This document shows, one piece after another, positions 5,968-22,573 of a stretch of DNA of 30,531 bases; the stretch's first letter is position 1, and each line of letters opens with the position of its first letter. Origin of the DNA: Myxococcota bacterium (GTDB lineage: Bacteria; Myxococcota_A; UBA9160; PR03); contig JBFIML010000047.1 of NCBI GenBank assembly GCA_041611735.1, forward strand, positions 1 to 30,531. Direction: 5' to 3'. A model generated the notes under the pieces. That model was not told the DNA's origin. It saw only the letters and a list, made by a program, of their open reading frames with translations, and ran no database searches. The translations under genes were made by a program, and so were the position numbers.

Positions 5968-5971
5968 GGAC

Positions 5972-8005
5972 CTAGCGGACCAGCCAGCCGACCACGGCCA
6001 GCGTGCCGAGCAGCATGACGAAGAGGTAGCCCTGGGCGAGGCCGGAGTGGGCGTGCTTGAGGACCCGGGCGGCCAGCGCGCGCACCGCGCGCGCCGTCCC
6101 GTCGACGCCCACTGCGTCGATCAGCCCGGCGTCCACGCCCCGGAAGAGCACGCGGTCCGAAGCGATCACCAGGGGCCGCACGAGCAGGGCATCGTAGATC
6201 TCGTCCACGTAGAACTTGTCGCGGACCAGGCGGAAGAGCGCTCCCAGACCGGCGCGCAGCCGCGCAGGCAGCCCCGGGCGGTGCACGTAGAGCCACCAGG
6301 CGAGCAGGGTGCCGAGCGAGGCGGCGGCCACCGCCAGACCCGCGAGCCCGAGCTCCACGGCGTGGGAGACGTGGTGGGCCTCGGCGGCGAGGACCGGAGC
6401 GAGGAAGTGGGCCAGGCTGTTCGAATCGCTCACCCCCAGGGCGTCGCCGTACACCTGGGGAAGGCCCGCCAGGCCCGCCACCGCCGAGAAGGCGGCCAGC
6501 ACGTAGAGGGGCACCCGCACCACCTGGCTCGGCTCGTGCACGTGATTGCGGACCTCTTCGGGCACACGGCTCGCGCCCGCGAAGGTCCGGAAGTGGAGCC
6601 GGAACATGTAGAAGGCGGTGAGCGCGGCGGTGACCAGGCCCAGGGCCCAGAGGGCCTGGTGCCCGGGCACGTCGTGGGCGAGCCAGGCGGAGAGCAGGAT
6701 CTCGTCCTTCGAGAAGAAGCCCGACAGGGGCGGGAAGCCGGCGATCGCCAACACCCCCACCAGGAAGACGAGGTGGGTGTGGGGCAGGCGCCGGCGCAGG
6801 CCGCCCATGCGGTCCGTGTCCTGCTCGTGGTGCATGGCCAGGATCACGGCGCCCGAGCCCAGGAAGAGCAGCGCCTTGAAGAAGGCGTGCGTCCCCAGGT
6901 GAAAGATGGCGGCACCGTAGGCTCCGCAACCGGCGGCCACGAACATGTAGCCGAGCTGGCTCACCGTGGAGTAGGCGAGGACCTTCTTGATGTCGGTCTG
7001 GGCCAGGGCGATGGTGGCGGCCAGCAGCGCCGTCACGCCGCCGGTCCAGGCCACCGTGGCAGCCGCACCCGGCCCCGCTTCGTAGACGAACGAGAGCCGG
7101 CAAACCATGTAGACGCCGGCCGTCACCATGGTAGCGGCGTGGATCAGGGCCGAGACCGGCGTCGGGCCGGCCATGGCGTCGGGCAGCCAGGTGTAGAGCG
7201 GGATCTGCGCCGACTTTCCGCAGGCACCGAGGAAGAGGCACAGACCGATCAGGGTGGCGAGGCGCCACTCCGGCGCCCCGGGCAGGAAGCCGAGCCAGTC
7301 CGGCAGCCGCACCGTGCGCTCGGCCAAGGCCCCGAAGCCGGCCTCGATCTCGTGGAACGCGATCGAGCCGACGCCCACGTCGCGCAGGGCCCAGACCAGC
7401 AGGAAGATGCCGACCAGGAAGCCGAAGTCCCCGATCCGGTTGACGATGAACGCCTTGCTGCCGCAGTAGGCGTTCCAGCGGTCGCCGTACCAGAAGCCGA
7501 TCAGCAGGTAGGAGCAGAGCCCGACGCCCTCCCAGCCCAGGAAGAGGACCAGCAGGTTGTCGCCCAGGACGAGCAACAGCATCGCGCAGGTGAACAGGTT
7601 CAGGTAGCAGAAGAAACGCTGGAAGCCGCCGTCGTCGCGGTGGTCCTCGGCCATGTAGCCAACCGAGTAGACGTGGATCAGGAAGCCGACGCCCGTCACC
7701 ACCAGGGTCATCACCGCGGAGAGCGCATCCATCCGGAAGCCGAGCTCGGCGTGGAAGCGGCCGGCTCCGATCCAGCTCCACACCTCGTCGGCCAGGAAGC
7801 CCGCCTCTCCGGGCAGGGTCAGCAGTCGCCCGAGGGACACGCAGGCGAGTACGAAGGCGAGCCCCACGGCGCCGCAGGAGAGGCCGACCACGAAGGCGCG
7901 CGGGGCCTCGCGCCGCAGGAGGCCGAGCATCACGCCGTGCACGGCCGCCGCCAGCACGGGCAGGAACACGATCCAGCGCAGCAGCGAGGTCTCCGCGCCT
8001 ACCAT
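5972..8005 (-). CDS. nuoL: NADH-quinone oxidoreductase subunit L
   Basis: Motifs [74 protein letters not shown], and a C-terminal KFYVDEIYD helix region. Confidence 0.96.
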
Positions 8006-8301
8006 CGCAGCAGGCTCACGTCCTCGACGTTGATGGACTCGCGGTTGCGGAACAGCGCGATCACGATGCCGAGCCCCACGGCCACCTCGGCGGCGGCCAC
8101 CGTGATCACCATCAGGACGAAGATCTGGCCGTCCAGGCTGCCCCAGGCCCGCGAGAAGCCCACGAAGGCCAGGTTCACGGCGTTCAGCATCAGCTCGATG
8201 GACATCAGGATCACGATCAGGTTGCGACGCGTGAGGGCACCGACCGTGCCGATCCCGAACAGGATCGCGGAGAGACCGATCACGTGCTCCAGGGGCACCA
8301 T
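7999..8301 (-). CDS. nuoK: NADH-quinone oxidoreductase subunit K
   Basis: 100 aa with [20 protein letters not shown] and [13 protein letters not shown]. Confidence 0.96.
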
Positions 8302-8303
8302 GG

Positions 8304-8804
8304 TCAGTCGAGGCTCCGCTTGGCGAGCACCACCGATCCCACCATGGCAGCGAGCAGCAGCAGCGACGTGACCTCGAAGGGGAGTACGAAGTCCGTGAAG
8401 AGGACGCGGCCCACCTCCCGGTAGCCCCCGAAACCCTCCGGCGTGACCGCGGCGTCCGGGAGCGTGCCGGGCAGGGCGCCCAGGAAGGCCACGCAGACGG
8501 CCGCCGCTAGCAACACGCCGAGCCCCTTCACCACCCGCTGGCGCGGCGGTGGGAAGGCGTCCTGGCGCAGGTTGAGCAGCATCACCACGAACAGGAACAG
8601 CACGACGATGGCCCCCGCGTAGACCATGATCTGGATCACCGCGATCAGATGCGCCTCCAGCAGGACGTAGATGGCGCCGAGCGCCACCATGGTCACCACC
8701 AGGCTCATGGCGGCCGCCACGGTGTTGCGCAAGTTCAAGACCATGCCCAGGGCCGAGGCCACCGCCAGGAAGGCGAAGAAGTAGAAGAACACGGCCTCGC
8801 TCAT
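8304..8804 (-). CDS. nuoJ: NADH-quinone oxidoreductase subunit J, about 166 aa
   Basis: The ATG at 8804 overlaps the nuoH stop (ATGA). Motifs [20 protein letters not shown] and [15 protein letters not shown]. Confidence 0.95.
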
Positions 8805-9952
8805 GGCAGCTCCAGGATCGCGAGGATCACCAGGCCGGTGACCATCACGTTGGCCAGGGAGAGCGGCAGCATGATCTTCCAGCACAGGTCCATCACCTGG
8901 TCGTAGCGGAAGCGCGGCAGGGTCCAGCGCAGCGCCATCTGGAACCACACCATGACCACCACCTTGAACAGGAAGGCCCCCACGTGCAGCACCATGCAGG
9001 CGAGGTTCGCGAAGCCCTCGCCAAGAACCGGTGCGATGGCCCCGACCAGGGTGGCCTGGGGCAGCCAGGGGATCGACCAGCCGCCCAGGAAGATCGCCGT
9101 CATCAGGCCGGCGATCACCACCACCTCGATGAACTCGGACATGTAGAACAGCCCGAACCGCATGCCCGAGTACTCGGTGAAGTAGCCCGCCACCAGCTCC
9201 GACTCGGCCTCCGGCATGTCGAAGGGCGGCCGCTTGTTCTCGGCCATGGCGGCGGCCAGGAACATCACGAAGGCCAGCGGCTGCAGGAAGACCCCCCAGA
9301 AGGGGAGCTGAAGCACGCCGAGCCAGCCGATGTCCCGTACCCAGCCGAAGTGCTCGAGGAACCCGAACAGGCGGAAGGTCGCGTCCTGGGCCACGGCCAT
9401 GTCGGTCATGCGCAGGGTCTGGAAGACCATGAACACGCCCACCACCGAGAGGCCCATGGTGACCTCGTAGGAGATCATCTGGGCCGAGGCGCGCAGGCTG
9501 CCGAGCAGCGACCAGTTGTTGTTGCTGGCCCAGCCGGCGATCACGGTGCCGTAGGTCGCGATCGATCCGATGGCGAAGATGTAGAGCAGCCCCCAGTCCA
9601 GGTCCGCCACCACCAGCGAGAGCTCGCGGTCGCCGAAGCGGTAGGTGGATCCGTAGGGGATCACCGCGAAGGCGATCAGGGCCGGGATGGCCGCGATGAG
9701 CGGCGCCACCAGGTGCATGACCCGGTTGGCGCCCGTGGGCACCACGTCCTCCTTGGTGAGGAGCTTGATCACGTCGGCGAGCGGATGGAAGAGCCCGAGC
9801 AAGCGGATGCCGAAGATGTCGGCACGGTTGGCCCCGATGCGATCCTGCATCACGGCGCTCTGCTTGCGCTCCACCCAGGTGATGACGGGAGCGAAGGCGC
9901 CGACCACCACGGCGAGGATGAAGGCGGTCTTGAGGATGGTCTCGAGGAGCAT
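8801..9952 (-). CDS. nuoH: NADH-quinone oxidoreductase subunit H
   Basis: Motifs WVERK...[63 protein letters not shown]. Confidence 0.96.
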
Positions 9953-9953
9953 C

Positions 9954-11558
9954 TCAGGCGCCGGCCTCCGCCCCCGGAGCCGTGCGCAGCGGGACGCCCT
10001 CGTCCCCCACCGCGTCGAGATCCAGGCCCCGGAACGCCGGCTGCTCCGCAGCGAGCCGCCGGGAGACCGCCCGGACGTCGTAGGGTCCGTCGAAGCCCGG
10101 CAGCCCGAGCTCGGCGCCGAGGAGCCACAGCACCTCGCCGTCGGCGCGGGCCTCGAAGGGCGGCTCCACCGCCGGCCGGACCCGCTGCACGCGGCCCGCG
10201 TGGTTGGTGAGGGTCCCGTACTTCTCGGCGGCGTGACGCACCGGGATCACCACGTGCGCCACCTGCTCGAGCCGCGCGTGGCGGGTGTCGAGCCAGATCA
10301 CGGTGTCGAGCCCCTTCAGGGCCGCCGGGTCCTCGCCCAGGTAGGCCGCGTCCAGGACGTCGTGGCCCAGGACGAGCAGGCCCTGCACGCCACCGCTGCG
10401 CAGGCGCTCGAGCACGGGCGCCGCATCCCCGAAGCCGAGTGCGCGCGCGCCGGCCGCATTGGCGGCCTTCTCCGCCTGGACCAGCAGGTCGTCCGCCTCG
10501 CCCCGCACCACCGCGAACCCGGCCGTCTCGCTGCCGAGGGCGTCGAGCAGGCGGCGCAGCACGAAGAGGTCCTCGTTGGTCGCGTGCGGGGACGCCAGGG
10601 CGGCCACGACACCGGGACCCTGCGCCTGGAGCAGGCGCCCGAGACGGGCCGCGGCGGCGGCGACGGCCGTCGCCAGGGGGACGGCCTCAAGACGCCCCTC
10701 CGGCCCCCGCACCTGGGGCAGTTGCAGCCGGTCCGCCGCGCCGATCGCCTTGTAGGAAAGACGCCCCGCGTCGCACATCCAGGTCTCGTTCACCGCGTCG
10801 TTGCGCCGCGGCACGTAGCGGTAGACCTTGTTGTTGGCGACCCCGGCGTGGACGTTGCACCCGTTGGCGCACCCCGTGCAGACTCCGGGCACGTCCTCCA
10901 GGAACCAGACCCGGATCCGGAAGCGGAAGTCCTTGGTGGTGAGCGCTCCGACGGGGCAGATGTCGGCCACGTTCATGGAGTAGGGGTTGTCCAGCTCCGT
11001 GCCGGGGAACGTCTCGATCACCGAGCGATCGGCCCGCGCGAAGATGCCCAGCTCCCCGGTCTTCGGCACCTCGCGACAGAAGCGCACGCAGCGCCGGCAC
11101 AGAATGCAGCGCTCCTGGTCGAAGACGATGGTCGGCCCGAGGTCGACCCGCTTCTTGAGCGCTCGCCGCGGCTCGCGCGTGCGGGCGTGGGCCACGCCGT
11201 AGGCAAAGGCGTAGTCCTGGAGCTTGCACTCGCCGGCCTGGTCGCAGATCGGGCAGTCGAGGGGATGGTTCACCAGCAGGAGCTCCATCACCCCCTCGCG
11301 GGCCTGCTTGACCCGCTCCGTGTCGGTACGGATCACCATGCCCTCCTGGACCAGGGTGTTGCAGGCGATCTGGAGCTTGGGGATCCCTTCCACCTCTACC
11401 TGGCACAGCCGGCAGGAGCCGTCGATGGAGAGCTTCGGGTGCCAGCAGTAGTGGGGGACCTCGATCTCGCTCATGAGCAGGCCGAGGTCGTCGAGCGCCT
11501 GGAGGATCGTGCGCCCCTCCACCACCTGGAGCTCCCGGCCGTCGACGGTTATGCGCAT
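9954..11558 (-). CDS. nuoG: NADH-quinone oxidoreductase subunit G (short form, 534 aa)
   Basis: N1b (HYCWH...SCRLC...IACNT), N5 (HPLDCPICDQAGEC), N4 (CILCRRC...DICPVGAL) and an N7-type CTGCANGC...MCD motif. The C-terminal part is molybdopterin-oxidoreductase-like (AEKYGTLTNHAGRVQ). Confidence 0.93.
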   Translation of the reverse strand: MRITVDGRELQVVEGRTILQALDDLGLLMSEIEVPHYCWHPKLSIDGSCRLCQVEVEGIPKLQIACNTLVQEGMVIRTDTERVKQAREGVMELLLVNHPLDCPICDQAGECKLQDYAFAYGVAHARTREPRRALKKRVDLGPTIVFDQERCILCRRCVRFCREVPKTGELGIFARADRSVIETFPGTELDNPYSMNVADICPVGALTTKDFRFRIRVWFLEDVPGVCTGCANGCNVHAGVANNKVYRYVPRRNDAVNETWMCDAGRLSYKAIGAADRLQLPQVRGPEGRLEAVPLATAVAAAAARLGRLLQAQGPGVVAALASPHATNEDLFVLRRLLDALGSETAGFAVVRGEADDLLVQAEKAANAAGARALGFGDAAPVLERLRSGGVQGLLVLGHDVLDAAYLGEDPAALKGLDTVIWLDTRHARLEQVAHVVIPVRHAAEKYGTLTNHAGRVQRVRPAVEPPFEARADGEVLWLLGAELGLPGFDGPYDVRAVSRRLAAEQPAFRGLDLDAVGDEGVPLRTAPGAEAGA

Positions 11559-12916: not shown

Positions 12917-13384
12917 CTACTCCAGCGCATCGAGGATCTGCTTGGCCCGCTCGGGACCGAGATCCTCGTGGTAGGTGCCGTCCACGCGCATCATGGGCGC
13001 CCAGCCGCAGGCCCCGAGACACTCCTCGTGCCCCAGGGTGATGCGGCCGTCCCGCGTCGTCTCCCCGGCGTGCACGCCGAGGTGTGTCTCGAGGGCACGG
13101 AGCAGCCCCCGGGCACCGCGCAGCGAACAGGGCAGGTTGGTGCACACGTACACGTGGTGCCGACCTTGAGGTTGGTCGTAGAACATGTTGTAGAAGGTGA
13201 CGACCTCCATCACCTCGACGGGGTGTAGACCGAAGAGCGATGCCACGGCGTTGGCGGCCTCGCGGTCGATGTGGCCGCGCTCCCGTTGCACCAGGTGGAG
13301 GGCCAGGAGCAGCGCGCCCCGCTTGTGGGGATAGCGCGCCATCTCGGCTTCGATGGCGGTACGCGTCTGTGCGGAGATCACCAC
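12917..13384 (-). CDS. nuoE: NADH-quinone oxidoreductase subunit E, about 155 aa
   Basis: EVVTFYNMF plus 2Fe-2S ligands VCTNLPC and ECLGACGWAPM. The start is GTG at 13384 or 13381, overlapping the nuoA end. Confidence 0.93.
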   Translation of the reverse strand: MVISAQTRTAIEAEMARYPHKRGALLLALHLVQRERGHIDREAANAVASLFGLHPVEVMEVVTFYNMFYDQPQGRHHVYVCTNLPCSLRGARGLLRALETHLGVHAGETTRDGRITLGHEECLGACGWAPMMRVDGTYHEDLGPERAKQILDALE

Positions 13385-13731
13385 TCGAGGGCTCCCTTCA
13401 TCCAGACGTAGGTCAGGCCGACGGCCAACACGCCGACGAAGGTGAACATCTCGATGAAGCCGAACCAGCCGAGCTCCGTGAAGAGCGCACCCCACGGGTA
13501 GAGGAAGACGGCCTCCACGTCGAACAGGATGAAGAGCATGGCGACCAGGTAGAACTTCACCGAATAGCGCTGGTGGGGCGAGACGAGCTGCCGTTCACCG
13601 CACTCGAAGGGCTCGAGCTTCTCTGCGAAGCGGCGGCGCGGACCCACGAGCAGGTGGATTCCGAGCAGCGCGCCGGCCATGACCAGCGCGATGGCGAGGA
13701 TGACCACGACGCCGCGGTACTCGGCGAGCAT
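13378..13731 (-). CDS. nuoA: NADH-quinone oxidoreductase subunit A, 117 aa
   Basis: Motifs KLEPFECG, FYLVAMLFILFDVEAVFLYPW, WMKGALEW. AGAGGGGA lies just upstream of the ATG. Confidence 0.95.
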   Translation of the reverse strand: MLAEYRGVVVILAIALVMAGALLGIHLLVGPRRRFAEKLEPFECGERQLVSPHQRYSVKFYLVAMLFILFDVEAVFLYPWGALFTELGWFGFIEMFTFVGVLAVGLTYVWMKGALEW

Positions 13732-13803
13732 GCTTCCCCTCTTGGCACCGCCCGAGGCCCGGGAACGCCACAAGCGCGCGTGTGGCTTGCGAAAACGCGC
13801 TGG

Positions 13804-13832
13804 ACGGTAGCCGTGGCCCCTGGCAAGGTCAA
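13804..13832 (-). promoter_or_regulatory. Putative sigma70 promoter of the nuo operon, TTGACC-N17-TACCGT
   Basis: On the minus strand, -35 TTGACC (13832-13827), a 17-nt spacer, and -10 TACCGT (13809-13804), about 70 nt upstream of nuoA. Confidence 0.6.
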
Positions 13833-13878
13833 GAAATCCGGCGGCGAAGGGCATGCGCTCGTGCGATAGACTCGCCGC

Positions 13879-14889
13879 ATGTCGCTCCCGGTAGGCGTGA
13901 TCGGCGCGGGCAGCTTCGGAACCTGCCTGGCGCTGCTCTCCGCCTGGCAGGGTCACGACGTCACGCTCTGGGCGCGTGACCCCCGCCTGGCGCACGCCAT
14001 CCAGCGCACCCGCTTCAACCCCCGCTACCTCTCGGACGTGGAGTGCCCCCCGAACCTGCGCGCCACGGAAGACCTGGAAGAGGCCCTGCGGGAGCGGGGC
14101 ATCGTGATCCTGGCGGTGCCGAGCCACGGGGTGCGGGAGGTGATGGGACGGGCCCGCGAGCACATGGCAGCGGACGCGATCCTCGTCTCGACGGTGAAGG
14201 GGATCGAGACGGAAACGGGCCGGACCATGGACCAGGTGCTGGCGGAGGTGCTCGCCCCCGCCCACCACCCGCGGCTCACCTTCCTCTCGGGACCCTCCTT
14301 CGCACGAGAGGTGGCCCAGCGCAAGCCGACCGTGGTGACGGTGGCCTGCCGGCAGGAGGCCTTCGCCGTAGCGGTGCAGACCGCCCTGGCCTGCCCCTGG
14401 TTCCGCATCTACTCCCACACCGACGTGCTCGGCGTGGAGCTGGGCGGCGCCCTCAAGAACGTAGTGGCCATCGCGGTCGGGATCAGCGACGGCCTTGGCC
14501 TCGGTCACAATGCACGGGCCGCCACCATGACCCGCGGGCTCGCGGAGATCACCCGGCTGGGGGTCCGCATGGGAGCAAATCCCCTCACCTTCCTCGGTTT
14601 GTCGGGAATGGGCGACCTGGTCCTCACCTGCACGGGCGACCTGTCGCGCAACCGGCAGGTGGGTCTCGAGCTGGGACGGGGGCGCAAGCTGGAGGAGATC
14701 CTGGGCGGCATGACCCAGGTGGCCGAGGGGGTGCGGACGACCGCGGCCGCCTGTGCCCTGGCGGATCGGCTCGGCGTGGAGCTGCCAATCGCGGAGATGG
14801 TGCGTAGCGTGCTGGACGGCGAGCTCGAGCCGGCGGAGGGCGTACACGCCCTGATGACGCGGCAGCTTCGCAGCGAGAAGGATCACTAG
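13879..14889 (+). CDS. gpsA: NAD(P)H-dependent glycerol-3-phosphate dehydrogenase
   Basis: Motifs GAGSFGT, LSGPSFA, ELGGALKNV, TRGLAEI, GMGDLVLTC...SRN, VAEGV. Confidence 0.96.
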   Translation: MSLPVGVIGAGSFGTCLALLSAWQGHDVTLWARDPRLAHAIQRTRFNPRYLSDVECPPNLRATEDLEEALRERGIVILAVPSHGVREVMGRAREHMAADAILVSTVKGIETETGRTMDQVLAEVLAPAHHPRLTFLSGPSFAREVAQRKPTVVTVACRQEAFAVAVQTALACPWFRIYSHTDVLGVELGGALKNVVAIAVGISDGLGLGHNARAATMTRGLAEITRLGVRMGANPLTFLGLSGMGDLVLTCTGDLSRNRQVGLELGRGRKLEEILGGMTQVAEGVRTTAAACALADRLGVELPIAEMVRSVLDGELEPAEGVHALMTRQLRSEKDH

Positions 14890-14930
14890 GAACGCGTTCG
14901 CAAATTTCTCCCGGGCCGTCCGCCCGTCCA

Positions 14931-14958
14931 TTGACGAGGGCTCACAGGCGGATAGCCT
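14931..14958 (+). promoter_or_regulatory. Putative sigma70 promoter TTGACG-N16-TAGCCT for the iron permease
   Basis: TTGACG at 14931-14936 and TAGCCT at 14953-14958, directly upstream of the Fur-like box. Confidence 0.5.
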
Positions 14959-14965
14959 TCCAATC

Positions 14966-14984
14966 GAAAACGATTTTCATTTTC
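14966..14984. promoter_or_regulatory. Fur-like box GAAAACGATTTTCATTTTC
   Basis: An AT-rich 19-mer imperfect palindrome in a very GC-rich background, matching GATAATGATAATCATTATC at 14/19 positions. It sits at the predicted transcription start of an iron permease gene. Confidence 0.7.
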
Positions 14985-15017
14985 TCTCCCGGGTTCCTGC
15001 GAGGCCCCCAAAGACCC

Positions 15018-17003
15018 GTGCCCCACCGCGCCGCACCTCTCCGCGACGCCTCCCCGGCCGCCCGGCCCGCCTGGGCCGGGCGACTCGGGGCGCTCGGGCT
15101 CGCCCTGGTGCTGGGGCTTCCCGGAGCCGCGGCGCAGGACCGCGACGAGGTGGCCCAGCGCACGGTGCATCTGCTGGAGTACGTGGCGATCGACTACCCG
15201 GCCGCCGTCCAGGATGGCCGGGTGGTGAGCGAGCTCGAGTACCGCGAGCAGCTCGACTTCCTGGCCGAAGTGGCGCTGCAGCTGGACACCCTGGGTGTGC
15301 CCGAGGCCGATCCGCTGCGGGACGGGTTGGCCGCCCTGGAGGAGGCGGTGCGGGCGCGAGCAGCGGCCTCGCGGGTGGCCGAGGGCGCGCAGTCGCTCTC
15401 CGACCGGCTGGTGCGCCGCTTCGACGTCTCGGTCCTGCCGCCGCGACCGCCCTCCGTGGAGCGCGGCCGGGCCCTCTACGCGGAGCACTGCGCCTCCTGT
15501 CACGGGCCGGCGGGCCGGGGCGACGGCCCCGCCGGCGTCGCCCTCGATCCCGCTCCGGGGGACCTCACCGACCGGGAGCGCATGCTGGCGCTCAGTCCTG
15601 CGGGCCTGTTCCGCACCATCACCTTCGGCGTGGCGGGCACGGGCATGGCCGGCTACGCGGACTCGCTCGACGAGCGCGCTCGCTGGGACCTCGCCTTCTT
15701 CTCGGGCTCTCTCGCATTCCACCCGGACGAGGTGGCGCGGGGCCGCACCCGCCTGGCGGGGGGCGGGGACCTCGCCGGGGCCGCGACTCCCACCCTCGCC
15801 GACCTGGCGCAGCGGCCAGCCCGGGAGCTCGGGATCGATCCGGCCACCATGGAGGTGGTCGCCTACCTGCGCACGCGGCCCCAGGCGCTGGCGGAAGGGG
15901 AGCTGCCCCTGGACGTGGCGCGCGCCCGCCTGCGCGCCTCGTGGCAGGCCTACGGCGAGGGCGACCGCCGCCGCGCCCTCGATCTGGCCATCTCGGCCTA
16001 CCTGGACGGCTTCGAGCATGCGGAGCCGGCGCTGGCCAGCGTCGATCGGGAGCTGCGGCTGCGCGTCGAGGACGACTTCCTGCGCTACCGCGGCCTGCTG
16101 CGCGAAGGCCAGCCCCCCGAGCAGGTGGCGGGCGTGTTCACGCGCCTCGAGGAGGGTCTCGCCGCCGCCCAGCAGAGCCTGGAGGGAGCCCGCTTCGGAC
16201 GCAGCGCGGCCTTCCTGGGCTCCTTCGCCATCGCCACCCGCGAAGGGCTCGAGGCCGTGCTGCTGGTGGTCGCGCTGTGCACGATCCTCGTCCGCGCCGG
16301 CCGCCGCGAGGGGCTTCGTTACGTGCACGCCGGCTGGCTGGCCGCCCTCGGCGCCGGGGCCGTCACCTGGTGGACCGCCCAGGAGCTGGTGCGCATCTCG
16401 GGCGCCGGGCGCGAGGTGATCGAGGGCGTGACGGCGCTGCTCGCCACCGGCATCCTCTTCTATGTGAGCTACTGGCTCGTCTCCAAGGTGGAGGTGGCGC
16501 GCTGGCAGACGTTCCTGCACCAGCGCATGCACTCCGCCCTCTCGCGCGGTTCGTTGTGGACGCTGGCCGGCGTCTCGTTCGTGGCGGTCTACCGCGAGGC
16601 GTTCGAGACGGTGCTCTTCTACCAGGCGCTGTTTGCCCAGGCGGGGCCCGGCGGCACACGGCCGATCCTGGCTGGCATGGCCGGCGGGGTCGCGCTGCTC
16701 GGCCTGCTGGCGGCCGTGGTGTTCCGCTTCGGTCTGCGCCTGCCCATGCGTCACTTCTTCGCGGCGAGCTCGGCCCTGCTGTACGCCCTCGCCATCGTGC
16801 TGGCGGGGCACGGCGTGGCGGCGCTCCAGGAGGCCGGCTGGCTGCCTGCCACCTTCGTGCCCGTGCTGCGCTTCGAGTGGCTCGGTATCCATCCCACCCT
16901 GGAAGGGCTCGGTCTCCAGGGCGTGCTGCTGGCCGTGGCCGCGCTCGGGATCCTGGTCATGCTGCTCCAGCGCCGTCCGCAGGCGAGCCTGCCGGCCGCC
17001 TAG
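15018..17003 (+). CDS. Cytochrome c / FTR1 (EfeU/PbrT-like) iron permease, about 661 aa
   Basis: Signal-peptide-like N-terminus, one heme motif CASCH with a later Met (GTGMAGY), YLDGFE, and two REXXE motifs (REGLE, REAFE) in a multi-TM C-terminal domain. I chose the GTG at 15018 because the ORF-track start at 14931 is the -35 box. Confidence 0.9.
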   Translation: MPHRAAPLRDASPAARPAWAGRLGALGLALVLGLPGAAAQDRDEVAQRTVHLLEYVAIDYPAAVQDGRVVSELEYREQLDFLAEVALQLDTLGVPEADPLRDGLAALEEAVRARAAASRVAEGAQSLSDRLVRRFDVSVLPPRPPSVERGRALYAEHCASCHGPAGRGDGPAGVALDPAPGDLTDRERMLALSPAGLFRTITFGVAGTGMAGYADSLDERARWDLAFFSGSLAFHPDEVARGRTRLAGGGDLAGAATPTLADLAQRPARELGIDPATMEVVAYLRTRPQALAEGELPLDVARARLRASWQAYGEGDRRRALDLAISAYLDGFEHAEPALASVDRELRLRVEDDFLRYRGLLREGQPPEQVAGVFTRLEEGLAAAQQSLEGARFGRSAAFLGSFAIATREGLEAVLLVVALCTILVRAGRREGLRYVHAGWLAALGAGAVTWWTAQELVRISGAGREVIEGVTALLATGILFYVSYWLVSKVEVARWQTFLHQRMHSALSRGSLWTLAGVSFVAVYREAFETVLFYQALFAQAGPGGTRPILAGMAGGVALLGLLAAVVFRFGLRLPMRHFFAASSALLYALAIVLAGHGVAALQEAGWLPATFVPVLRFEWLGIHPTLEGLGLQGVLLAVAALGILVMLLQRRPQASLPAA

Positions 17004-17004
17004 C

Positions 17005-17868
17005 ATGAAGGCCCTCGCCACGCGGCGGGGCGGCGCGCTGCTGGCGGCGCTCGTGCTGGCCGTCCTGCCGGGCTGCGGTCCTCGCTTCGTGCGCGAGACC
17101 GTCTTCCAGGAGGGCGAGATCGTCGCGCGAGTGCGCTGGCAACGGCAGGGCGGAGACCCCGTCGAGCGCGGCTTCGCCCATCCGGTCACGATCTCCCCGG
17201 TGCGCCTCGCCCACATCCTCTCGAACGTCGACGTCCGCTTCGAGAAGACCGAGGAGGACGAGCGGCAGCTCGCCATCCCGACGGAGCTCCTCTACCCGAT
17301 CGGCGAGGCCTTGGCCCGGGGGCTGGCCCGCGCCGACTCGAGCCAGGAGGTGGTGGTGACCGCCGTACGGCGCGAGCGCCGCCTCGGGATCTTCACGCGG
17401 CGCTTCCTGACCGGACTCGTGGCCTACGTGGAGAGCGAGAACCTGGTGCTCCACCTCTCACACCTGGACTGGGAAGTGCCGAGGGGGGAGAAGGACGAGC
17501 TGCCCGAGCCCTGGGCGAACCGCCCGCGCATGGGCTTCCGCGTGCTGTCTGCCGAGGGCATCACGCCGGCGGGTCCCCAGGCGCTGACGGTGACCTGGCG
17601 GGACCCTCGCTTCCGCAGCCCGCGCAGCCTGCGCGTCGGACCCACGGGCCGGGTGCTGCGACGCACCATCCTGATGGAGAGCGCACCGGAGCCGGCGGCG
17701 CCGCAAGGGGGCGCCGGGGTGGAAGACGCCCTGGATCCGGCGACGCTGCGCGCCCTGGCGGACCTGGAGGAGGCGCGCCGCCGTGGCGAGCTCACGGAGG
17801 CGGAATATCAGGCCCGCCGCCGCGAGCTCCTGGGCGGGGAGCCCGAGCCCGCGTCCAATCCACCCTGA
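17005..17868 (+). CDS. Putative lipoprotein with C-terminal SHOCT domain, 287 aa
   Basis: ATG 1 nt after the permease stop. Basic N-region, hydrophobic core and lipobox LPG-C24. The C-terminus LRALADLEEARRRGELTEAEYQARRRELL is SHOCT-like. Confidence 0.8.
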   Translation: MKALATRRGGALLAALVLAVLPGCGPRFVRETVFQEGEIVARVRWQRQGGDPVERGFAHPVTISPVRLAHILSNVDVRFEKTEEDERQLAIPTELLYPIGEALARGLARADSSQEVVVTAVRRERRLGIFTRRFLTGLVAYVESENLVLHLSHLDWEVPRGEKDELPEPWANRPRMGFRVLSAEGITPAGPQALTVTWRDPRFRSPRSLRVGPTGRVLRRTILMESAPEPAAPQGGAGVEDALDPATLRALADLEEARRRGELTEAEYQARRRELLGGEPEPASNPP

Positions 17869-17969
17869 TCGACCCCGCGGGGCGAGTGCGGTGTCGGGCC
17901 CCCGGCCCGAGGTTGGCGTAACCTGCCGGGCTTCCTCGAGCACCCATCCGGAAGGGCCCCACAGCCAGC

Positions 17970-20900
17970 ATGCCGATCCTCCTCGAGATCCTCGTCGTCG
18001 GCGCGGCGGCGTTCGCCGTCGCGCGCCTCACGGCCCCGCCCTGGCGCGGCCGCCTCCTGAACGTCTTCAAGGCCTACGTGACGGTGCGGGCCTTCTGGCT
18101 GCTGCTCACCCACCAGGTGGCCATGGACCCGGCGCAGATCGCCGCCCTGCACCTGGACGGGGTCGTGCCCGAGGGCACCCATCACGTGGCGGCGTGGCGT
18201 CTCATCCTCGCCCAGATCGGGCTGATCGAGGCGCGCACCTTCTGGGCCTTCGTGTTGCTCGCCGCGGCCGTGAAGTTCGTCGGCATCCTGGCCTCCATGA
18301 CGCGCTGGCGCCTGCTGCTGCTCGGCCAGCGCATCGAGCTTCCGTTCCGCCACATCTTTGGATCCTTCCTGATCGGGCGCTTCATCGGAACCTTCCTGCC
18401 CAGCACCGCCGGGCTCGACGGCTACAAGCTCTACGACGCGGCCCGCTTCAGCGGGCGCACGGTGGAGGCCACCGCCGCCACCGTGGTCGAGAAGGTGCTC
18501 GGCTTCTCCGGGATCTTCCTCTCGTTCCTGGTGGCGCTGCCCTTCGGCATCCAGATCTTCGGGACGCGGGGCCCGCTGATCGCGTCCCTGACCGTCCCCG
18601 TGGCCCTCGGCCTGATCGCCGGTCTGCTGATCGCGCTCTGGTTCCCGGGCTTCATCCAGTGGTTCCTGGACCATCTGCCCCTGCCCGGCAAGGCGCGCCT
18701 GGAGGGGCTCGTGATGCGGATCTCCCGCTCCGCCTCCGCCTACCGGGACAAGAAGCTGCTGGTGCTCAGCGCCCTGTTCCTGTCCTTTGTGGTGCACTTC
18801 ACCACGGCGGCCATGTACTACTTCACGGCCGTGGCCATCTCGGCGGAGGGCGCCGCGTTCTGGCCGATCGCCTTCGGCTCCTCGATCCAGATCTTCGCCA
18901 CGGTGATCAGCCCCTTCACCATCGCCGGCGAGGGCATTCGCGAGGCGGCCCAGTACGTGCTGCTCGGCAACCTGATCGGCCCGGCGGCGGCGATCGTGTC
19001 GGCGGCGCTCGGCTTCTGGGCCGCCGAGGCCCTCACGCTGATGGGCGGCGTCTTCTGGTGGGTGCGCAGCCCGGACTACCGCCCGGTGTACTGCCGGGTG
19101 AACGGCGACCAGGTGGACTACGTCGCGGCGGCCCGCGCGGCGCTGGCCCTGGAGACGGAGGAGGACCGGACGCGGCGCTCCGCGCGGCCGGCCGCCGAGC
19201 TGCCGCCGCTCCGGGAGCGGGTGCCCACGAGCGGAGGACTCGGGCTCGGGGCCGGCGTGGTGGCAGGGCTCGTGCTCGGCCTGGCCGAGGCCTTCGTGAT
19301 CCTGCGCGGCGGCGTGGCCGGCGAGGCCCAGGTGCTCTGGTACGGCCCGCTCGCCTACGCGGCGGTGCTCGGCGCGGCGGGGCTCGCGGGCGGCCTCGTG
19401 CTGGGACTGATCCCCATGGAGCGCCGCGAGATCCGCGGCTGGACGCCGAGCCTCGCCTGGCTGGCGCTGCTGGTCCCTCCCGGCCTCGCCGTGACGCTGT
19501 TTCGCGTGCGTCGGGACGTGTTCCACGAGCAGATGCCGCCAATCCCGGTGCTGGCGGCCATCCTCGCCGTGGCCGGACTCCTGGCCGTGGGCCTCTTCCT
19601 GGCGGGCCCGCGCTGGTTCGCCGGGCGTGCGGGCGCCTGGGTGCGGCCCGGGCGGGCCCTGGCTGCGCTCGCCCTGGTCGCCCTGGTGGGCGCCGTGGGC
19701 GCTCGCGTGGTGGCCCCGCCGTCGCCCCCGCTCCCGGCCCCGCGGGCGGTACCGGCGGCCCTGGCGGAGCGGCCCAACGTGATCCTGGTCATGGTGGACA
19801 CCCTGCGGGCCGACGTCCTCTCCTGCTACGGCGGCAGCGTGCAGGCGCCCGCCATCTGCGGACTCGGCGACGACGGCGGGAGCCGCTTCCTGGCCTTCTC
19901 CCACGCCTCCTGGACCAAGCCGGCCGCCGCGACGCTGCTCTCGTCACTGCTGCCCTCGAGCCATGCAGCCGTCTCCAAGACGGCTGCCCTGTCCCAGGAC
20001 GTGGACCTCGTCTCCGAGGTGATGCAGCGCGCCGGCTACGCCACCGGCGGCATCGTCTCGAACATCAACATGACCGCGAGCTTCGGGTTCGATCAGGGTT
20101 GGGACGAGTACCACTACCTCGGACCGGACTACCTGGCGGGGGCCCGGGAGTCGTCGTCGAAGCTGGTCCTGTACCAGATCGGCCGCAAGGTCTGGTTCCG
20201 GCTTTTGCCCGGGCACCGAGTCAACAACTTCTACCAGGACGCCGAGACGGTGAACCGGGTGGCCTTCGACTGGCTGGAGCGGCATCGCAACGCACGCTTC
20301 TTCCTGTTCCTGCACTACATGGACCCGCACGACCCGTACTTCGCCCACCCCTACGACGGGACGGCCGTGGCCCGCGTGGAGCGCGAGCATCCCGACCCGA
20401 CCCAGGCGGAGACCATGCGCCGCTTGTACGACGGGGAGATCCGCTGGCTCGACACGCACGTGGCGCGCCTCCTCGATCACCTGCGCGACCTCGGCCTCTC
20501 GGACGACACCTTGATCCTGCTGACGGCCGACCACGGCGAGGAGTTCCACGAGCACGGCGGCTGGTGGCACGGCAAGACCCTCTACGAGGAGCAGATCCAC
20601 GTCCCGCTGCTGGTCCGGTGGCCGCGAGGGTCGGCGGACGCGAACGGACGCACGGGGGATCGGATCGTTCGACTGCTCGACGTGGCGCCGACCCTCGTTG
20701 CGCGCGCGGGAGCGCCGGTGCCCGAGGCGATGCAGGGGACCGACCTGGTGGGCGGCCCCTTGGAGCGTGTCGTGTTCGCCGAGGAGGACCACGAAGGCAA
20801 CGTGCTCACGGCGATACGCACGCGGGAGTGGAAGCTGATCGAGGCGAACCAGGGCAACCCGCGCGGGCTGCCGCCCGTCGAGCTGTTCGCCATCCAGCGC

Positions 20901-21086
20901 GACCCGGGCGAGACGCGCAACCTGGACGGGACCCACGGCGACGTGGCGGCACGCCTGCGCGAGGAGGCGGCGGCCCAGCGCCGCTTCGCCGAGAGCCGGG
21001 CCGTGGGAGCGGGCGAGACCGCCCAGCTCAGCCGCGAGGAGTGCGAGAAGCTCCGCGTCCTCGGCTACGTCCAGGAGTGCGACTGA
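17970..21086 (+). CDS. Fusion of an LPG-synthase-TM/UPF0104 flippase-like domain, extra TM helices and a sulfatase-like (alkaline phosphatase superfamily) domain, 1038 aa
   Basis: The N-part has RWRLLL, FIGTFLPSTAGLDGYK, VVEKVLG, PFTIAGEGIREAA (PF03706-like). The C-part, from about aa 601, has RPNVILVMVDTLRAD, SWTKPA, HYMDPHDPY, TADHGEEF, HGKTLYEEQIHVPL and LRVLGYV. Confidence 0.85.
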   Translation: MPILLEILVVGAAAFAVARLTAPPWRGRLLNVFKAYVTVRAFWLLLTHQVAMDPAQIAALHLDGVVPEGTHHVAAWRLILAQIGLIEARTFWAFVLLAAAVKFVGILASMTRWRLLLLGQRIELPFRHIFGSFLIGRFIGTFLPSTAGLDGYKLYDAARFSGRTVEATAATVVEKVLGFSGIFLSFLVALPFGIQIFGTRGPLIASLTVPVALGLIAGLLIALWFPGFIQWFLDHLPLPGKARLEGLVMRISRSASAYRDKKLLVLSALFLSFVVHFTTAAMYYFTAVAISAEGAAFWPIAFGSSIQIFATVISPFTIAGEGIREAAQYVLLGNLIGPAAAIVSAALGFWAAEALTLMGGVFWWVRSPDYRPVYCRVNGDQVDYVAAARAALALETEEDRTRRSARPAAELPPLRERVPTSGGLGLGAGVVAGLVLGLAEAFVILRGGVAGEAQVLWYGPLAYAAVLGAAGLAGGLVLGLIPMERREIRGWTPSLAWLALLVPPGLAVTLFRVRRDVFHEQMPPIPVLAAILAVAGLLAVGLFLAGPRWFAGRAGAWVRPGRALAALALVALVGAVGARVVAPPSPPLPAPRAVPAALAERPNVILVMVDTLRADVLSCYGGSVQAPAICGLGDDGGSRFLAFSHASWTKPAAATLLSSLLPSSHAAVSKTAALSQDVDLVSEVMQRAGYATGGIVSNINMTASFGFDQGWDEYHYLGPDYLAGARESSSKLVLYQIGRKVWFRLLPGHRVNNFYQDAETVNRVAFDWLERHRNARFFLFLHYMDPHDPYFAHPYDGTAVARVEREHPDPTQAETMRRLYDGEIRWLDTHVARLLDHLRDLGLSDDTLILLTADHGEEFHEHGGWWHGKTLYEEQIHVPLLVRWPRGSADANGRTGDRIVRLLDVAPTLVARAGAPVPEAMQGTDLVGGPLERVVFAEEDHEGNVLTAIRTREWKLIEANQGNPRGLPPVELFAIQRDPGETRNLDGTHGDVAARLREEAAAQRRFAESRAVGAGETAQLSREECEKLRVLGYVQECD

Positions 21087-21154
21087 CGGGACGTGGTGGA
21101 CGAGTTGACTTTTCGAGACGGCTCCGCGGCCGACGTCCCCGGGGAAGAAGTCGA

Positions 21155-22573
21155 TCAGCCTACAACGTCCCCGGTCTCCTCGAGCTGGGCAGCGACGCGC
21201 AGGAGCACGTCCTCCCGCCCGTAGGCCGCCACGAGCTGCACGCCAATCGGGAGACCCGCCGCGTTGCGGCGCAGCGGCAGCGAGATGGCGGGCTGGCCCG
21301 TCACGTTGAACGGGATCGTGAAGAGGACGAAGCTCGTGGATCGAGACAGGGCCCGCATCGGCTCCTCGGGCGTCGGATCGAAGTCGCCGAGCGGCGGCGG
21401 CGGCTCGGGGATGGTCGGCGTGAGGAGCAGGTCGTAGCCGTCCTCCCACCAGCGCGCCATGCGACGGGAGAAGGTCTGCAGCGCGTTCACGGCCTCGATG
21501 TAGCGCGTCGCCGGGATCTCGCGTCCGAGTTCGGCGAGCGCCCAGTTGTGCGGCTCCACGTCGTCCGCTGCGATACGTCGCCCGGTGCGTCGGCTCCAGT
21601 AATCGAGGTTCCGGGCGGTCCAGCCGGCAATGAGCGCGGTGGTCGCTTCCGCGAGCTCCGGGTCCGCCAGGGCCGACGGGTGCGACTCTTCGACGCAATG
21701 CCCCAGGGATTCGAGCCGTCGCGCCGCCGCGTCCGCGGCGACGACGACGTCGCGGTGGACTTCGACCTGCCCGCGCGGATCTCGGGTTAGGAGCCCGATG
21801 CGCAGCCGCCCGGGTCCGGCGACCACCTCCGAGGCGAAGGGACGGGCGGGGACCGCTGCGAAGTAGGGGTCCCCCGGCATCGGTCCGGACAGCGCGTCCA
21901 ACATGCGGGCCGTATCGCGCACCGAGCGGCTCACCACCCCCTCGGTCACGAGGCCGGCCCACTTCTCGCCGCCATCCGGTCCGATGGGTAGCCGCCCGCG
22001 GGTCGGCTTGAGTCCGATCACCCCGCACTCGCTGGCGGGAATGCGGATCGAACCGCCCCCGTCGCTGGCATGGGCCACCGGCACCAGGCCCGCCGCGACC
22101 GCGGCCGCTGACCCGCCGCTCGAGCCTCCCGCCGAGCGCGAGGGGTCCCACGGGTTGTGCGTGCGACCGTAGGCGCGCGATTCGGTAGTGGTCTGGGTGC
22201 CGAGCTCGGGCGTGTTCGTCTTGCCGAGCAGCACGAGACCCGCCCGGCGGAACCGTTGCACCAGGTAGGTGTCTTCCGCTTCGACCCAGTTCAGCTGCTT
22301 CAGGAAGGTCATGCCCGCGTGGTAGGGATCCCCGGCCGAGTGGGAATCCAGGTCCTTCAGCAGGAAGGGGACGCCCCGGAAGGGCCCCTCCGGTGCGGCG
22401 TCGGCCTCGGTGCGCGCCTTCTCGAAGCGCTCCGTGATGACGGCGTTCAGGTCGGGATTCAGGCGCTCGATTCGCGCGATGGCGGCGGCGACCAGCTCGG
22501 CGGGCTTGGCCTCGCCGCGGCGCACGAGCTCGGCCTGGGCGGTGGCATCGAGCCGGGCCAGTTCGTCGCTCAT
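21155..22573 (-). CDS. Amidase-signature family amidase
   Basis: GVPFLLKD (catalytic Lys), [34 protein letters not shown]. An AAGGAG RBS and a TAGGAT -10 lie upstream. Confidence 0.93.

Follow-up and report, generated by a model that had tools for sequence, protein, structure and literature searches.

The stretch of DNA analysed here (the window) is contig JBFIML010000047.1 of the Myxococcota bacterium assembly GCA_041611735.1, 30,531 nucleotides long, and its central gene (17970-21086, forward strand) joins a PplT/MprF-type domain, a bundle of five transmembrane helices (5-TM bundle) and a Thr-type sulfatase-fold domain in one protein of 1038 amino acids (aa). We propose, at a probability of about 0.4, that this protein is a Thr-dependent phospho-head-group transferase, which would take its head group from a membrane phospholipid at the periplasmic face and would carry its own scramblase. 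The proposal draws directly on the architecture, conservation and folds of the protein, on its aligned catalytic residues and on the loss of sulfatase residues. Hydrolysis with the same Thr chemistry is the main rival; a lipid sensor, a fusion without functional coupling and a true sulfatase are lesser ones. The protein is MprF-like in its logic and EptA/LtaS-like in its chemistry, belongs to neither family, and lacks the signature that defines the S1 sulfatases.

In the mechanism that we envisage, the protein would be an inner-membrane enzyme of three modules. The domain of MprF-TMD1 type (PplT) would move or equilibrate phospholipids between the leaflets, and the five-helix bundle would anchor the catalytic domain and probably present the lipid to it. 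The alkoxide of Thr649, activated by a metal held by D610, D854 and H855, would attack the phosphodiester of an outer-leaflet phospholipid, giving a covalent phospho-head-group-Thr intermediate with release of diacylglycerol. An acceptor in the envelope would then receive the head group, as with EptA, LtaS and OpgB, while the fused scramblase would resupply the donor lipid and rebalance the leaflets.

Architecture and authenticity of the fusion gene

The gene is a single open frame of 1038 codons plus a stop, with no internal stop, as judged from the open reading frame, Pfam, homologs and contigs. Its codon composition (G+C of 0.72, 0.49 and 0.95 at the first, second and third positions, in a genome of about 70% G+C) is that of a real gene in this genome; the overlapping long open reading frames in other frames and on the opposite strand have an inverted composition, as shadow frames would. 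The start codon is supported by the homolog consensus, which begins at M1. Pfam places PF03706 (LPG_synthase_TM) at aa 80-347 (E 1.2e-14; 54.9 bits against a cut-off of 33.4), PF00884 (Sulfatase) at aa 602-914 (E 2.3e-40; 139 bits) and PF16347 (SGSH_C) at aa 861-999 (51.7 bits), with a weaker match of PF01663 to the catalytic domain (27.7 bits against a cut-off of 23). In NCBIfam the protein has only sub-threshold matches, to models of arylsulfatase, choline sulfatase, YejM and EptA/MCR, around the DHG motif.

Five segments can be delimited: (i) an MprF TMD1-like (PplT, PF03706) lipid-translocating domain, assigned from Pfam, Foldseek, VIA and AlphaFold2 helices (aa 1-365; 17970-19064); (ii) a charged linker with a small conserved hairpin and a helix, predicted to be cytoplasmic from homolog conservation, AlphaFold2 and positive-inside reasoning (aa 366-413; 19065-19208); (iii) the five-helix membrane bundle, from AlphaFold2, conservation and loop charges (aa 414-581; 19209-19712); (iv) a Pro-rich linker, evident in the sequence, that leads to the catalytic domain (aa 582-600; 19713-19769); and (v) an alkaline-phosphatase (AP)-superfamily domain of S1-sulfatase fold, PF00884 plus SGSH_C, assigned from Pfam, PDB sequence search, Foldseek and hhalign and predicted to be periplasmic from loop charges (aa 601-1038; 19770-21083). 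In all, 13 membrane helices are predicted. An earlier note, made from the letters of the sequence, had described an uninterrupted frame with a UPF0104-like domain, a bundle of about five helices, a Pro-rich linker and an AP-superfamily domain, and translation, Pfam and the AlphaFold2 helices agree with it.

The fusion is genuine and not an assembly artefact. Among the best 120 of 859 homolog matches, which are 998-1053 aa long, PF03706 and PF00884 are both present in 120 of 120; their public names are of the kind "sulfatase-like hydrolase/transferase" and "arylsulfatase A-like enzyme/YbhN", the sulfatase label that the earlier note had expected from automated annotation. A full-length fusion without an internal stop was found in 17 of 40 relatives, with high-identity pieces, mostly at contig ends, in 8 more. 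Across 301 genomes sampled evenly from the phylum, 89 match aa 1-600 at E ≤1e-20, and 58 of these do so in frames of at least 980 aa. At the level of sequencing runs, Logan contigs of a possible source run span the gene from end to end with 0 differences, one contig (19001-20554) bearing the junction, and in a run from another study the contigs 18864-19235 and 19216-19539 cover the junction zone, again with 0 differences. No stop or frameshift thus appears in 19050-19250, where a check of the junction had been called for. A more distant strain carries two compensating +1/-1 indel pairs in its Logan contigs, and the frame is kept. Since homologs, relatives, phylum sample and contigs all show one frame, the two separate genes or the junction frameshift that would have undone the fusion are not what is found. 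The runs containing the fusion sequence are labelled marine metagenome, and no RNA run is listed among them.

Two relatives show a broken gene. In the first (G017), the N-terminal 620 residues and the catalytic domain lie far apart on one "contig" (C1:2537527-2539335 and 1695628-1696818) of a 68%-complete genome, and in the second (G015), the fusion gene is in three frame-shifted pieces (C14:490959-494087); both are probably assembly or long-read errors. Over the DHGEEF motif (20516-20624), a short conserved stretch that paralogs and other organisms have in common, contig depth is 5- to 10-fold higher in each of the four runs, and loose ends are numerous at 20527-20563.

Beyond close homologs, the best 150 matches among 1.84 billion cluster representatives fall into two architectures, with and without the N-terminal domain (N-domain). 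Together with the query, 151 sequences were classed with family hidden Markov models (HMMs): 51 have the N-domain and the catalytic domain, 92 lack the N-domain (5-TM bundle plus catalytic domain, or catalytic domain only) and 8 are N-terminal pieces. The 51 fused and 92 non-fused sequences are the 143 representatives to which conservation values below refer; their identity reaches down to about 30%. Among named genome records, the fusion occurs in many metagenome-assembled genomes of Myxococcota, and also in Candidatus Fermentibacteria (locus L030) and Candidatus Hydrogenedentota (L046, L047, L049 and L050). PF03706 and PF00884 were both confirmed in the distant fusions L030 and L046 (PF03706 at 60.2 and 68.4 bits, respectively).

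The active site on a sulfatase scaffold

By sequence and by fold, the catalytic domain resembles the S1 sulfatases (SulfAtlas S1) and the phosphonate monoester hydrolases (PMH), such as 4upk, 7p24, 9fo1 and 6hhm. The best PDB sequence matches are members of these two groups (4upk, 3.8e-22; 7p24, 1e-21; range 4e-22 to 1e-12), and with the full-length AlphaFold2 model (predicted local distance difference test, pLDDT, 82) the 50 best-listed Foldseek matches are all S1 sulfatases, PMH or choline sulfatases (E about 1e-17; target template-modelling score, TM, about 0.65). The combination of PF00884 with PF16347 is shared, and the D...DHG metal ligands are kept; in the fusion protein the motifs stand at 610-615 (DTLRAD), 647-653 (SWTKPAA), 785-787 (DPH) and 854-856 (DHG). 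The fusion differs in being membrane-anchored, through its 13 predicted helices, and in its active site. In HMMER alignments to solved sulfatases, T649, the predicted nucleophile (codon 19914-19916), falls on the Cys/Ser of the formylglycine signature C/S-x-P-x-R and A653 on its Arg; the signature is absent, and T-K-P-A-A stands at the aligned site. In alignments to 7p24 and 4upk, N698 and N700 fall on a K-x-H pair, and G868, which adjoins the invariant H867, on a later Lys after the DxG metal motif. Going by arylsulfatase A, the Arg, Lys, His and Lys of sulfatases at these places are sulfate-binding. All 120 of the 120 close homologs have Thr at position 649, and position 653 is T, A, F or I. 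Similarly, Thr occupies position 649 in 49 of the 51 fused representatives (2 gaps) and in 88 of the 92 non-fused ones (2 gaps, 1 G, 1 A), and N698, N700 and H867 are kept across the family in the alignment of representatives. The earlier note had read the four motifs in the same way, with Thr on the formylglycine site and the Arg missing, and had held the protein to be probably not a true sulfatase; the invariant Thr, the missing signature and the changed sulfate-binding positions point in that direction.

A genuine sulfatase that needs no formylglycine, and that might act on, for instance, sulfolipids brought to it by the flippase-like domain, is another reading. In its favour, S1 sulfatases and the related PMH account for all the best matches in sequence and fold, the protein contains an SGSH_C subdomain and the genome encodes three FGE-domain proteins (C11, C29 and C72). 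We consider this reading very improbable. Not only is C/S-x-P-x-R replaced in every close homolog, and the positions of Arg, Lys, His and Lys taken by A/T/F, N698, N700 and G868, but the same holds for the signature in the sulfatase-like paralogs of the genome. Pfam finds 18 PF00884 places (phmmer finds the same 18), on C4, C5, C7, C9, C19, C39, C43, C45 and C87, and in 16 of the 17 paralogs with the site aligned the nucleophile position is Thr, typically in W-T-x-P-[SA]-H; the remaining one, on C19, has Ser in a poorly aligned stretch. C/S-x-P-x-R occurs in 0 of these 17, and the FGE homologs are therefore left with no evident sulfatase client.

The active-site residues do find counterparts in phosphoethanolamine-type enzymes of the EptA family. 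Aligned with hhalign, the family profile matches E. coli K-12 EptA over 270 columns (EptA 232-529; Prob 92.1%, E 6e-7). In this alignment, the first metal ligand D610 of DTLRAD (codon 19797-19799) lies on the Glu of EptA GETSRAE, T649 on the second Thr of CGTAT, H787 of DPH (20328-20330) on the His of GSHGP, the metal ligands D854 and H855 of DHG (20529-20534) on DHGE, and H867 of WWHG (20568-20570), which directly precedes G868 in the sulfatase alignments, on the His of YLHG. Each of the six, D610, T649, H787, D854, H855 and H867, is at least 95% conserved in the 143 representatives. For comparison with MCR-1 we assume a correspondence between the EptA motifs and MCR-1 numbering, in which the H787 site is presumably MCR-1 His395. 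In MCR-1, the structural report gives phospho-Thr285, Glu246, Asp465 and His466 as ligands of Zn1; EptC and LptA both retain His395 and His478, which in LptA bind the second zinc, and the T285A substitution abolishes function (PMC5031297).

The S1 fold and the EptA-aligned residues together therefore describe a sulfatase scaffold bearing a phosphotransferase-type active site. The likeness to EptA, LptA, EptC and MCR-1 extends to the layout, namely several membrane helices followed by an exported AP-superfamily domain with a Thr nucleophile, and to the aligned zinc site and conserved His residues. Five transmembrane helices and an exported Thr-type domain are the layout of the lipid-donor transferases EptA, LtaS and OpgB, and LtaS, OpgB and GacH offer the analogy of membrane helices joined to an exported Thr-nucleophile AP domain. 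The differences are a first metal ligand that is Asp in the fusion and Glu in EptA, a conservative change; an S1-sulfatase-like scaffold with an extra C-terminal SGSH_C part (about 120 aa) past the end of the EptA alignment; a membrane domain that is not detectably related; and the additional N-terminal PplT domain. The likeness to LtaS/EptA that had been suggested before thus stands for the active-site residues of EptA, but not for the scaffold, which is an S1-sulfatase fold with SGSH_C and not an LtaS/EptA-family domain. LtaS and OpgB were absent among the 60 listed PDB sequence matches and the 50 listed Foldseek matches, no LtaS or OpgB sequence having been compared directly.

The conservation of these residues also bears on a different kind of function. 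In the manner of PbgA/YejM, the protein could be a non-catalytic or weakly catalytic lipid sensor or regulator, in which the AP-like domain binds a lipid, the membrane part relays its level and the PplT domain serves as a lipid-binding module. YejM/PbgA has the same layout of five transmembrane helices and an AP-like domain, the NCBIfam YejM model gives a weak match (E 4.6e-8, 31.8 bits), and no operon supplies an acceptor pathway. That match, however, spans only aa 812-929, around DHG, and lies far under its cut-off of 825 bits, and every residue needed for catalysis is conserved in at least 95% of the representatives in spite of their divergence; a sensor is, in our view, improbable.

The membrane modules and the facultative N-terminal domain

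Residues 1-365 form an MprF-transport-like (PplT) domain, as assigned by Pfam and by predicted fold. With an alignment of 51 diverse sequences, AlphaFold2 modelled aa 1-600 at a pLDDT of 90.3 and a predicted TM score (pTM) of 0.82, the latter indicating that the N-domain and the five-helix bundle are predicted as one body; in the model the bundle packs on the N-domain. Searched against the PDB with Foldseek, the N-terminal model retrieved six MprF entries (E 7e-5 to 8e-4, probability 1.00) ahead of a next match at E 0.046, and VIA against representatives aligned residues 1-395 of the model with MprF at Z 20.6 (root-mean-square deviation 4.1, 286 residues) and Z 18.6 (286-288 residues), the next match being at 7.4. 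Sequence comparison does not reach the MprF structures: phmmer of aa 1-600 against the PDB gave no match at E up to 10, and a profile of 11 N-domains gave only chance matches against PDB sequences (E ≥0.74), with no MprF chain. The link to MprF is therefore one of Pfam and fold; the NCBIfam model TIGR00374 ("flippase-like domain") scores 33.7 bits, under its cut-off of 43.2.

In the AlphaFold2 model, two helix-loop-helix hairpins (aa 126-161 and 297-336) bear a repeated P-x-T-x-G...G/D motif. According to a 2025 structural report, TMD1 of PaMprF (TM1-8) has two re-entrant hairpin pairs, at TM3 and TM7, and is a promiscuous scramblase whose role is set by the fused enzyme; YbhN is mentioned there as well (PMC11980842). 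The fusion thus resembles MprF and the PplT/YbhN/GpgF proteins (PF03706, UPF0104) in that its N-terminal 365 aa or so match PF03706 and have a fold like MprF TMD1 with two predicted re-entrant hairpins, and it resembles MprF further in that a transport domain is joined to a lipid-related enzyme through a second membrane bundle. It differs in that Pfam finds no aminoacyl-phosphatidylglycerol synthase domain, the C-terminus being PF00884/PF16347; in that its enzyme is predicted on the opposite, periplasmic side; and in that its second bundle is predicted to have five helices against six in TMD2. The VIA range stops at residue 395, so that the bundle lies outside the alignment to MprF, and the columns of the Foldseek alignment to MprF span about 600 residues but at a TM of 0.35. 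An MprF-flippase-like N-domain had been foreseen by the earlier note, and the above-threshold PF03706 match and the fold match at Z 20.6 agree with it. Its further suggestion that the domain flips a lipid-linked substrate keeps the MprF-like fold on its side, but specific-substrate flipping appears too narrow where the solved relative is described as a promiscuous scramblase (PMC11980842). For the fusion protein itself we infer flipping, head-group transfer and the nature of the substrate. A second PF03706 protein in the genome is a canonical stand-alone PplT/YbhN of 358 aa (143.5 bits), adjoining ribF (G000:C13; L015:1405-2481, reverse strand); the organism therefore has two PF03706 proteins.

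The helices of the bundle run, in the AlphaFold2 model, from 414 to 446, 455 to 478, 485 to 517, 525 to 551 and 560 to 581, and three residues, E440, R515 and D516, have a conservation of 90% or more across diverse fusions. A match of the bundle to a known fold was sought and discarded: at Z 7.4, the best VIA match, a designed protein like a G-protein-coupled receptor, is without meaning. The 66 5-TM regions that were aligned have their positive charge in loops B-C and D-E (K+R 2.83 and 2.55 against D+E 0.97 and 0.45, respectively) and not in loops A-B and C-D (K+R/D+E 0.50/1.14 and 2.29/1.89). These charges fit an N-terminus inside, five crossings and the catalytic domain outside, and the strongly basic loops 111-127 and 236-262 together with the linker 366-417 indicate that the end of the N-domain is inside. 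In addition, at least six PF00884 paralogs of the genome carry a lipoprotein signal peptide that leads straight into the domain, multi-helix anchors occur in at least five, and the catalytic domain has an invariant cysteine pair, C619 and C630. From the loop charges, the lipoprotein-type paralogs and C619/C630, the catalytic domain (aa 601-1038) is predicted to be periplasmic, in agreement with what had been expected of it.

Whether the two membrane modules and the enzyme work together is a separate question, and here the distribution of the family matters. Nineteen loci carry complete stand-alone genes for the 5-TM bundle plus catalytic domain, bounded by upstream stops, in Thermodesulfobacteriota, Polyangiaceae, Binatia, Zixiibacteriota, Ignavibacteria and others; the flanks covered gave no N-domain gene for any of the 19, although the family HMM could miss a very divergent PF03706. 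For the Thermodesulfobacteriota locus L026, the N-terminal 400 aa of the long frame were rejected as non-coding, the pattern of third-position G+C being out of frame, and the real start is near residue 405. In a FastTree phylogeny of the catalytic domain (129 rows, after 22 rows less than 80% filled were left out), fused and unfused forms interleave; the tree requires 29 changes, of which well-supported branches force no fewer than 19, and shuffling gives a mean of 37. Truncated metagenome gene calls may account for some unfused rows, yet the complete stand-alone loci in genomes show that the unfused form exists. Interleaving and stand-alone loci together indicate that the N-domain is a recurrent, facultative addition. 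The idea of a one-gene machine put forward before is thus upheld in that the fusion is real and conserved, but it has to allow for close relatives that have neither the N-domain nor a neighbouring copy of it.

Stand-alone homologs of the N-domain exist in other families of the phylum (about 450-540 aa; L098-L105). They are 42-50% identical to the N-domain of the fusion and closer to it than are the N-domains of distant fusions. A gene for the 5-TM bundle plus catalytic domain adjoins them in 0 of 8 loci, one weak generic sulfatase-fold paralog lying about 5 kb off in L102. Beside them, in five of the eight loci (L098, L099, L103, L104 and L105), are two conserved proteins of about 290 and 780 aa, which gave no Pfam, NCBIfam or PDB match and are unrelated to the lipoprotein of the window described below. 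An Mrp/NUBPL-type ATPase gene is near in three loci, and moaA too in two.

These patterns would suit a PplT domain with no functional coupling to the enzyme, that is, an extra membrane anchor or an independent housekeeping scramblase: the N-domain has been gained or lost repeatedly, its stand-alone homologs have no adjoining enzyme and the genome holds a second, canonical PplT. We nevertheless regard this as rather improbable, because the fusion persists in at least three phyla and across a long divergence, down to about 30% identity, because the N-domain and the bundle form a single rigid body in the AlphaFold2 prediction, and because the linker contains invariant residues; in close homologs, R366, Y370, P372, C375, V377, G379, Q381 and R417 of the linker region do not vary.

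Genomic context, transfer or hydrolysis, and meaning

Directly upstream of the fusion, at a distance of 101 nucleotides, lies a gene for a lipoprotein of 287 aa (17005-17868, forward strand) with a lipobox L-P-G-C and a SHOCT-like C-terminal helix (25.5 bits, just under the cut-off of 27; no family reaches its cut-off). It holds the same place in 15 loci of the close clade, L009 being an exception, and all 13 full-length copies that were aligned retain the lipobox Cys. The genome has a single copy of the gene, and none of the 10 distant fusion loci has one; the nearest ESM Atlas clusters of the lipoprotein are "SHOCT domain-containing" or hypothetical proteins. The lipoprotein may be an operon partner of the fusion. 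A complex prediction with the catalytic domain scored 0.01 against a mark of 0.32, which weighs neither for nor against binding, and a scan of 13000-21400 for promoters and terminators returned 0 sites of either kind. The longest call of the lipoprotein frame, from 16633, overlaps the preceding gene and is an over-extension; that gene (14931-17003, forward strand) encodes 690 aa with a cytochrome c domain (aa 176-257) and an FTR1 iron-permease domain.

The window otherwise contains selB (3' part), an EamA transporter, nuo genes and gpsA before the FTR1-cytochrome c gene and, after the fusion, a convergent amidase, a pyridoxal-phosphate-dependent enzyme of Cys/Met metabolism, a sigma-54 regulator, gshB and a class A penicillin-binding protein. 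The selB part with its SelB winged-helix domains (1-903, forward strand) and the complex I run of nuoG-, H-, L- and M-like genes (4342-11558, reverse strand) are a housekeeping context. The glycerol-3-phosphate dehydrogenase gene gpsA (13879-14889, forward strand) lies a few kb upstream of the fusion on the same strand, and is also upstream in six close loci (L019, L020, L021, L024, L052 and L061) and in the stand-alone locus L026; its position may be plain synteny or a link to glycerophospholipid supply.

In distant loci, other neighbours appear. PF01663 genes (NPP-type phosphodiesterase) stand directly upstream in L030 (2721-5733, forward strand; fused, Fermentibacteria) and in L026 (2800-5340, forward strand; stand-alone, Thermodesulfobacteriota). 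Phosphatase-type neighbours elsewhere comprise Ppx/GppA with a histidine phosphatase, and a HAD protein with a metallophosphoesterase (L031/L034, L039 and L050); they are hints from a few distant loci and not a conserved system. L030 also has a gene for a phosphatidylethanolamine-binding protein (PEBP) directly downstream.

It is with these neighbours that hydrolysis has to be weighed. On this account the protein would be a periplasmic phosphodiesterase, or an enzyme like phospholipase C or D, that takes phospho-head groups off lipids of the outer leaflet or off other phosphodiesters of the envelope; it could serve phosphorus scavenging or lipid remodelling, with the scramblase feeding it substrate. 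The active-site constellation is common to hydrolases and transferases of the AP superfamily, the catalytic domain itself matches PF01663 above cut-off, PF01663 genes and other phosphatase-type genes are neighbours in the loci just named, and the sequence occurs in marine metagenome runs. The phosphatase-type neighbours are, however, not conserved across the family and are absent from the window, and for soluble substrates the genome already has lipoprotein-anchored paralogs. A simple hydrolase would moreover have no need of a polytopic anchor with charges that are conserved (E440, R515 and D516), which is typical of lipid-donor transferases. We judge hydrolysis to be unlikely, though it is a serious competitor.

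Several observations weigh against the transferase that we prefer. The catalytic domain is far closer in sequence and fold to the S1 sulfatases and PMH (E 1e-22 by sequence, 3e-17 with Foldseek) than to the EptA-family models of NCBIfam, which score 15-25 bits against cut-offs of 493-1250 (EptA PRK09598, 17.4 against 561; MCR, 14.9-24.5 against 1075-1250). The bundle has no detectable similarity to the EptA membrane domain (hhalign) or to any solved fold (VIA), and the topology is read from charge bias only. The N-domain is dispensable for the family, as the interleaved tree and the 19 stand-alone loci without it indicate. No envelope-biosynthesis operon surrounds the fusion gene, the 57 neighbour open reading frames of the 10 distant fusions share no consistent partner, and the phosphatase-type neighbours of a few distant loci fit hydrolysis as well as transfer. 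Transfer from a lipid donor, by phosphoryl rather than sulfuryl chemistry and with scrambling by the N-domain, is thus put forward with these points in mind.

No description of a fusion of PF03706 with a sulfatase domain was found among the papers listed for YbhN/UPF0104, for Thr-nucleophile AP-superfamily enzymes or for PF03706 together with sulfatases. The PplT preprint lists other fusions and counts 148 architectures; the word "sulfatase" is absent from its main text, and its figure 2 or supplements may include the fusion. New here are also the conserved lipoprotein gene directly upstream, the lack of C/S-x-P-x-R in the alignable PF00884 paralogs of the genome and the interleaving of fused forms and forms without the N-domain on the tree.

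Little is known of the phospholipid scramblases and flippases of bacteria, the transport domain of MprF being the best-studied case. A fusion to an enzyme predicted to be periplasmic offers a direct test of the idea, put forward in the MprF report, that the fused enzyme sets the role of this transport domain (PMC11980842). More generally, many database "sulfatases" in Myxococcota and neighbouring phyla are without sulfatase chemistry, which affects inferences on sulfur and glycan cycling from metagenomes. Should the enzyme attach phospho-head groups to lipid A, glycans or lipoproteins, this would represent a new route to envelope charge modification. More doubtfully, the fusion may stand for a class of "flip-and-transfer" envelope enzymes, in which an MprF-type scramblase is joined to a periplasmic phospho-head-group transferase and one polypeptide couples translocation to decoration. 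The transferase would have arisen from an S1-sulfatase scaffold by a switch from formylglycine to threonine, converging on the EptA/LtaS active site, and the scramblase would keep the outer leaflet in donor phospholipid, a mirror image of MprF, whose enzyme sits inside and whose product is flipped outward. Were this so, the 16 Thr-type paralogs would be a radiation of mis-named "sulfatases" that carry out phosphoryl chemistry in the envelope of marine Myxococcota.

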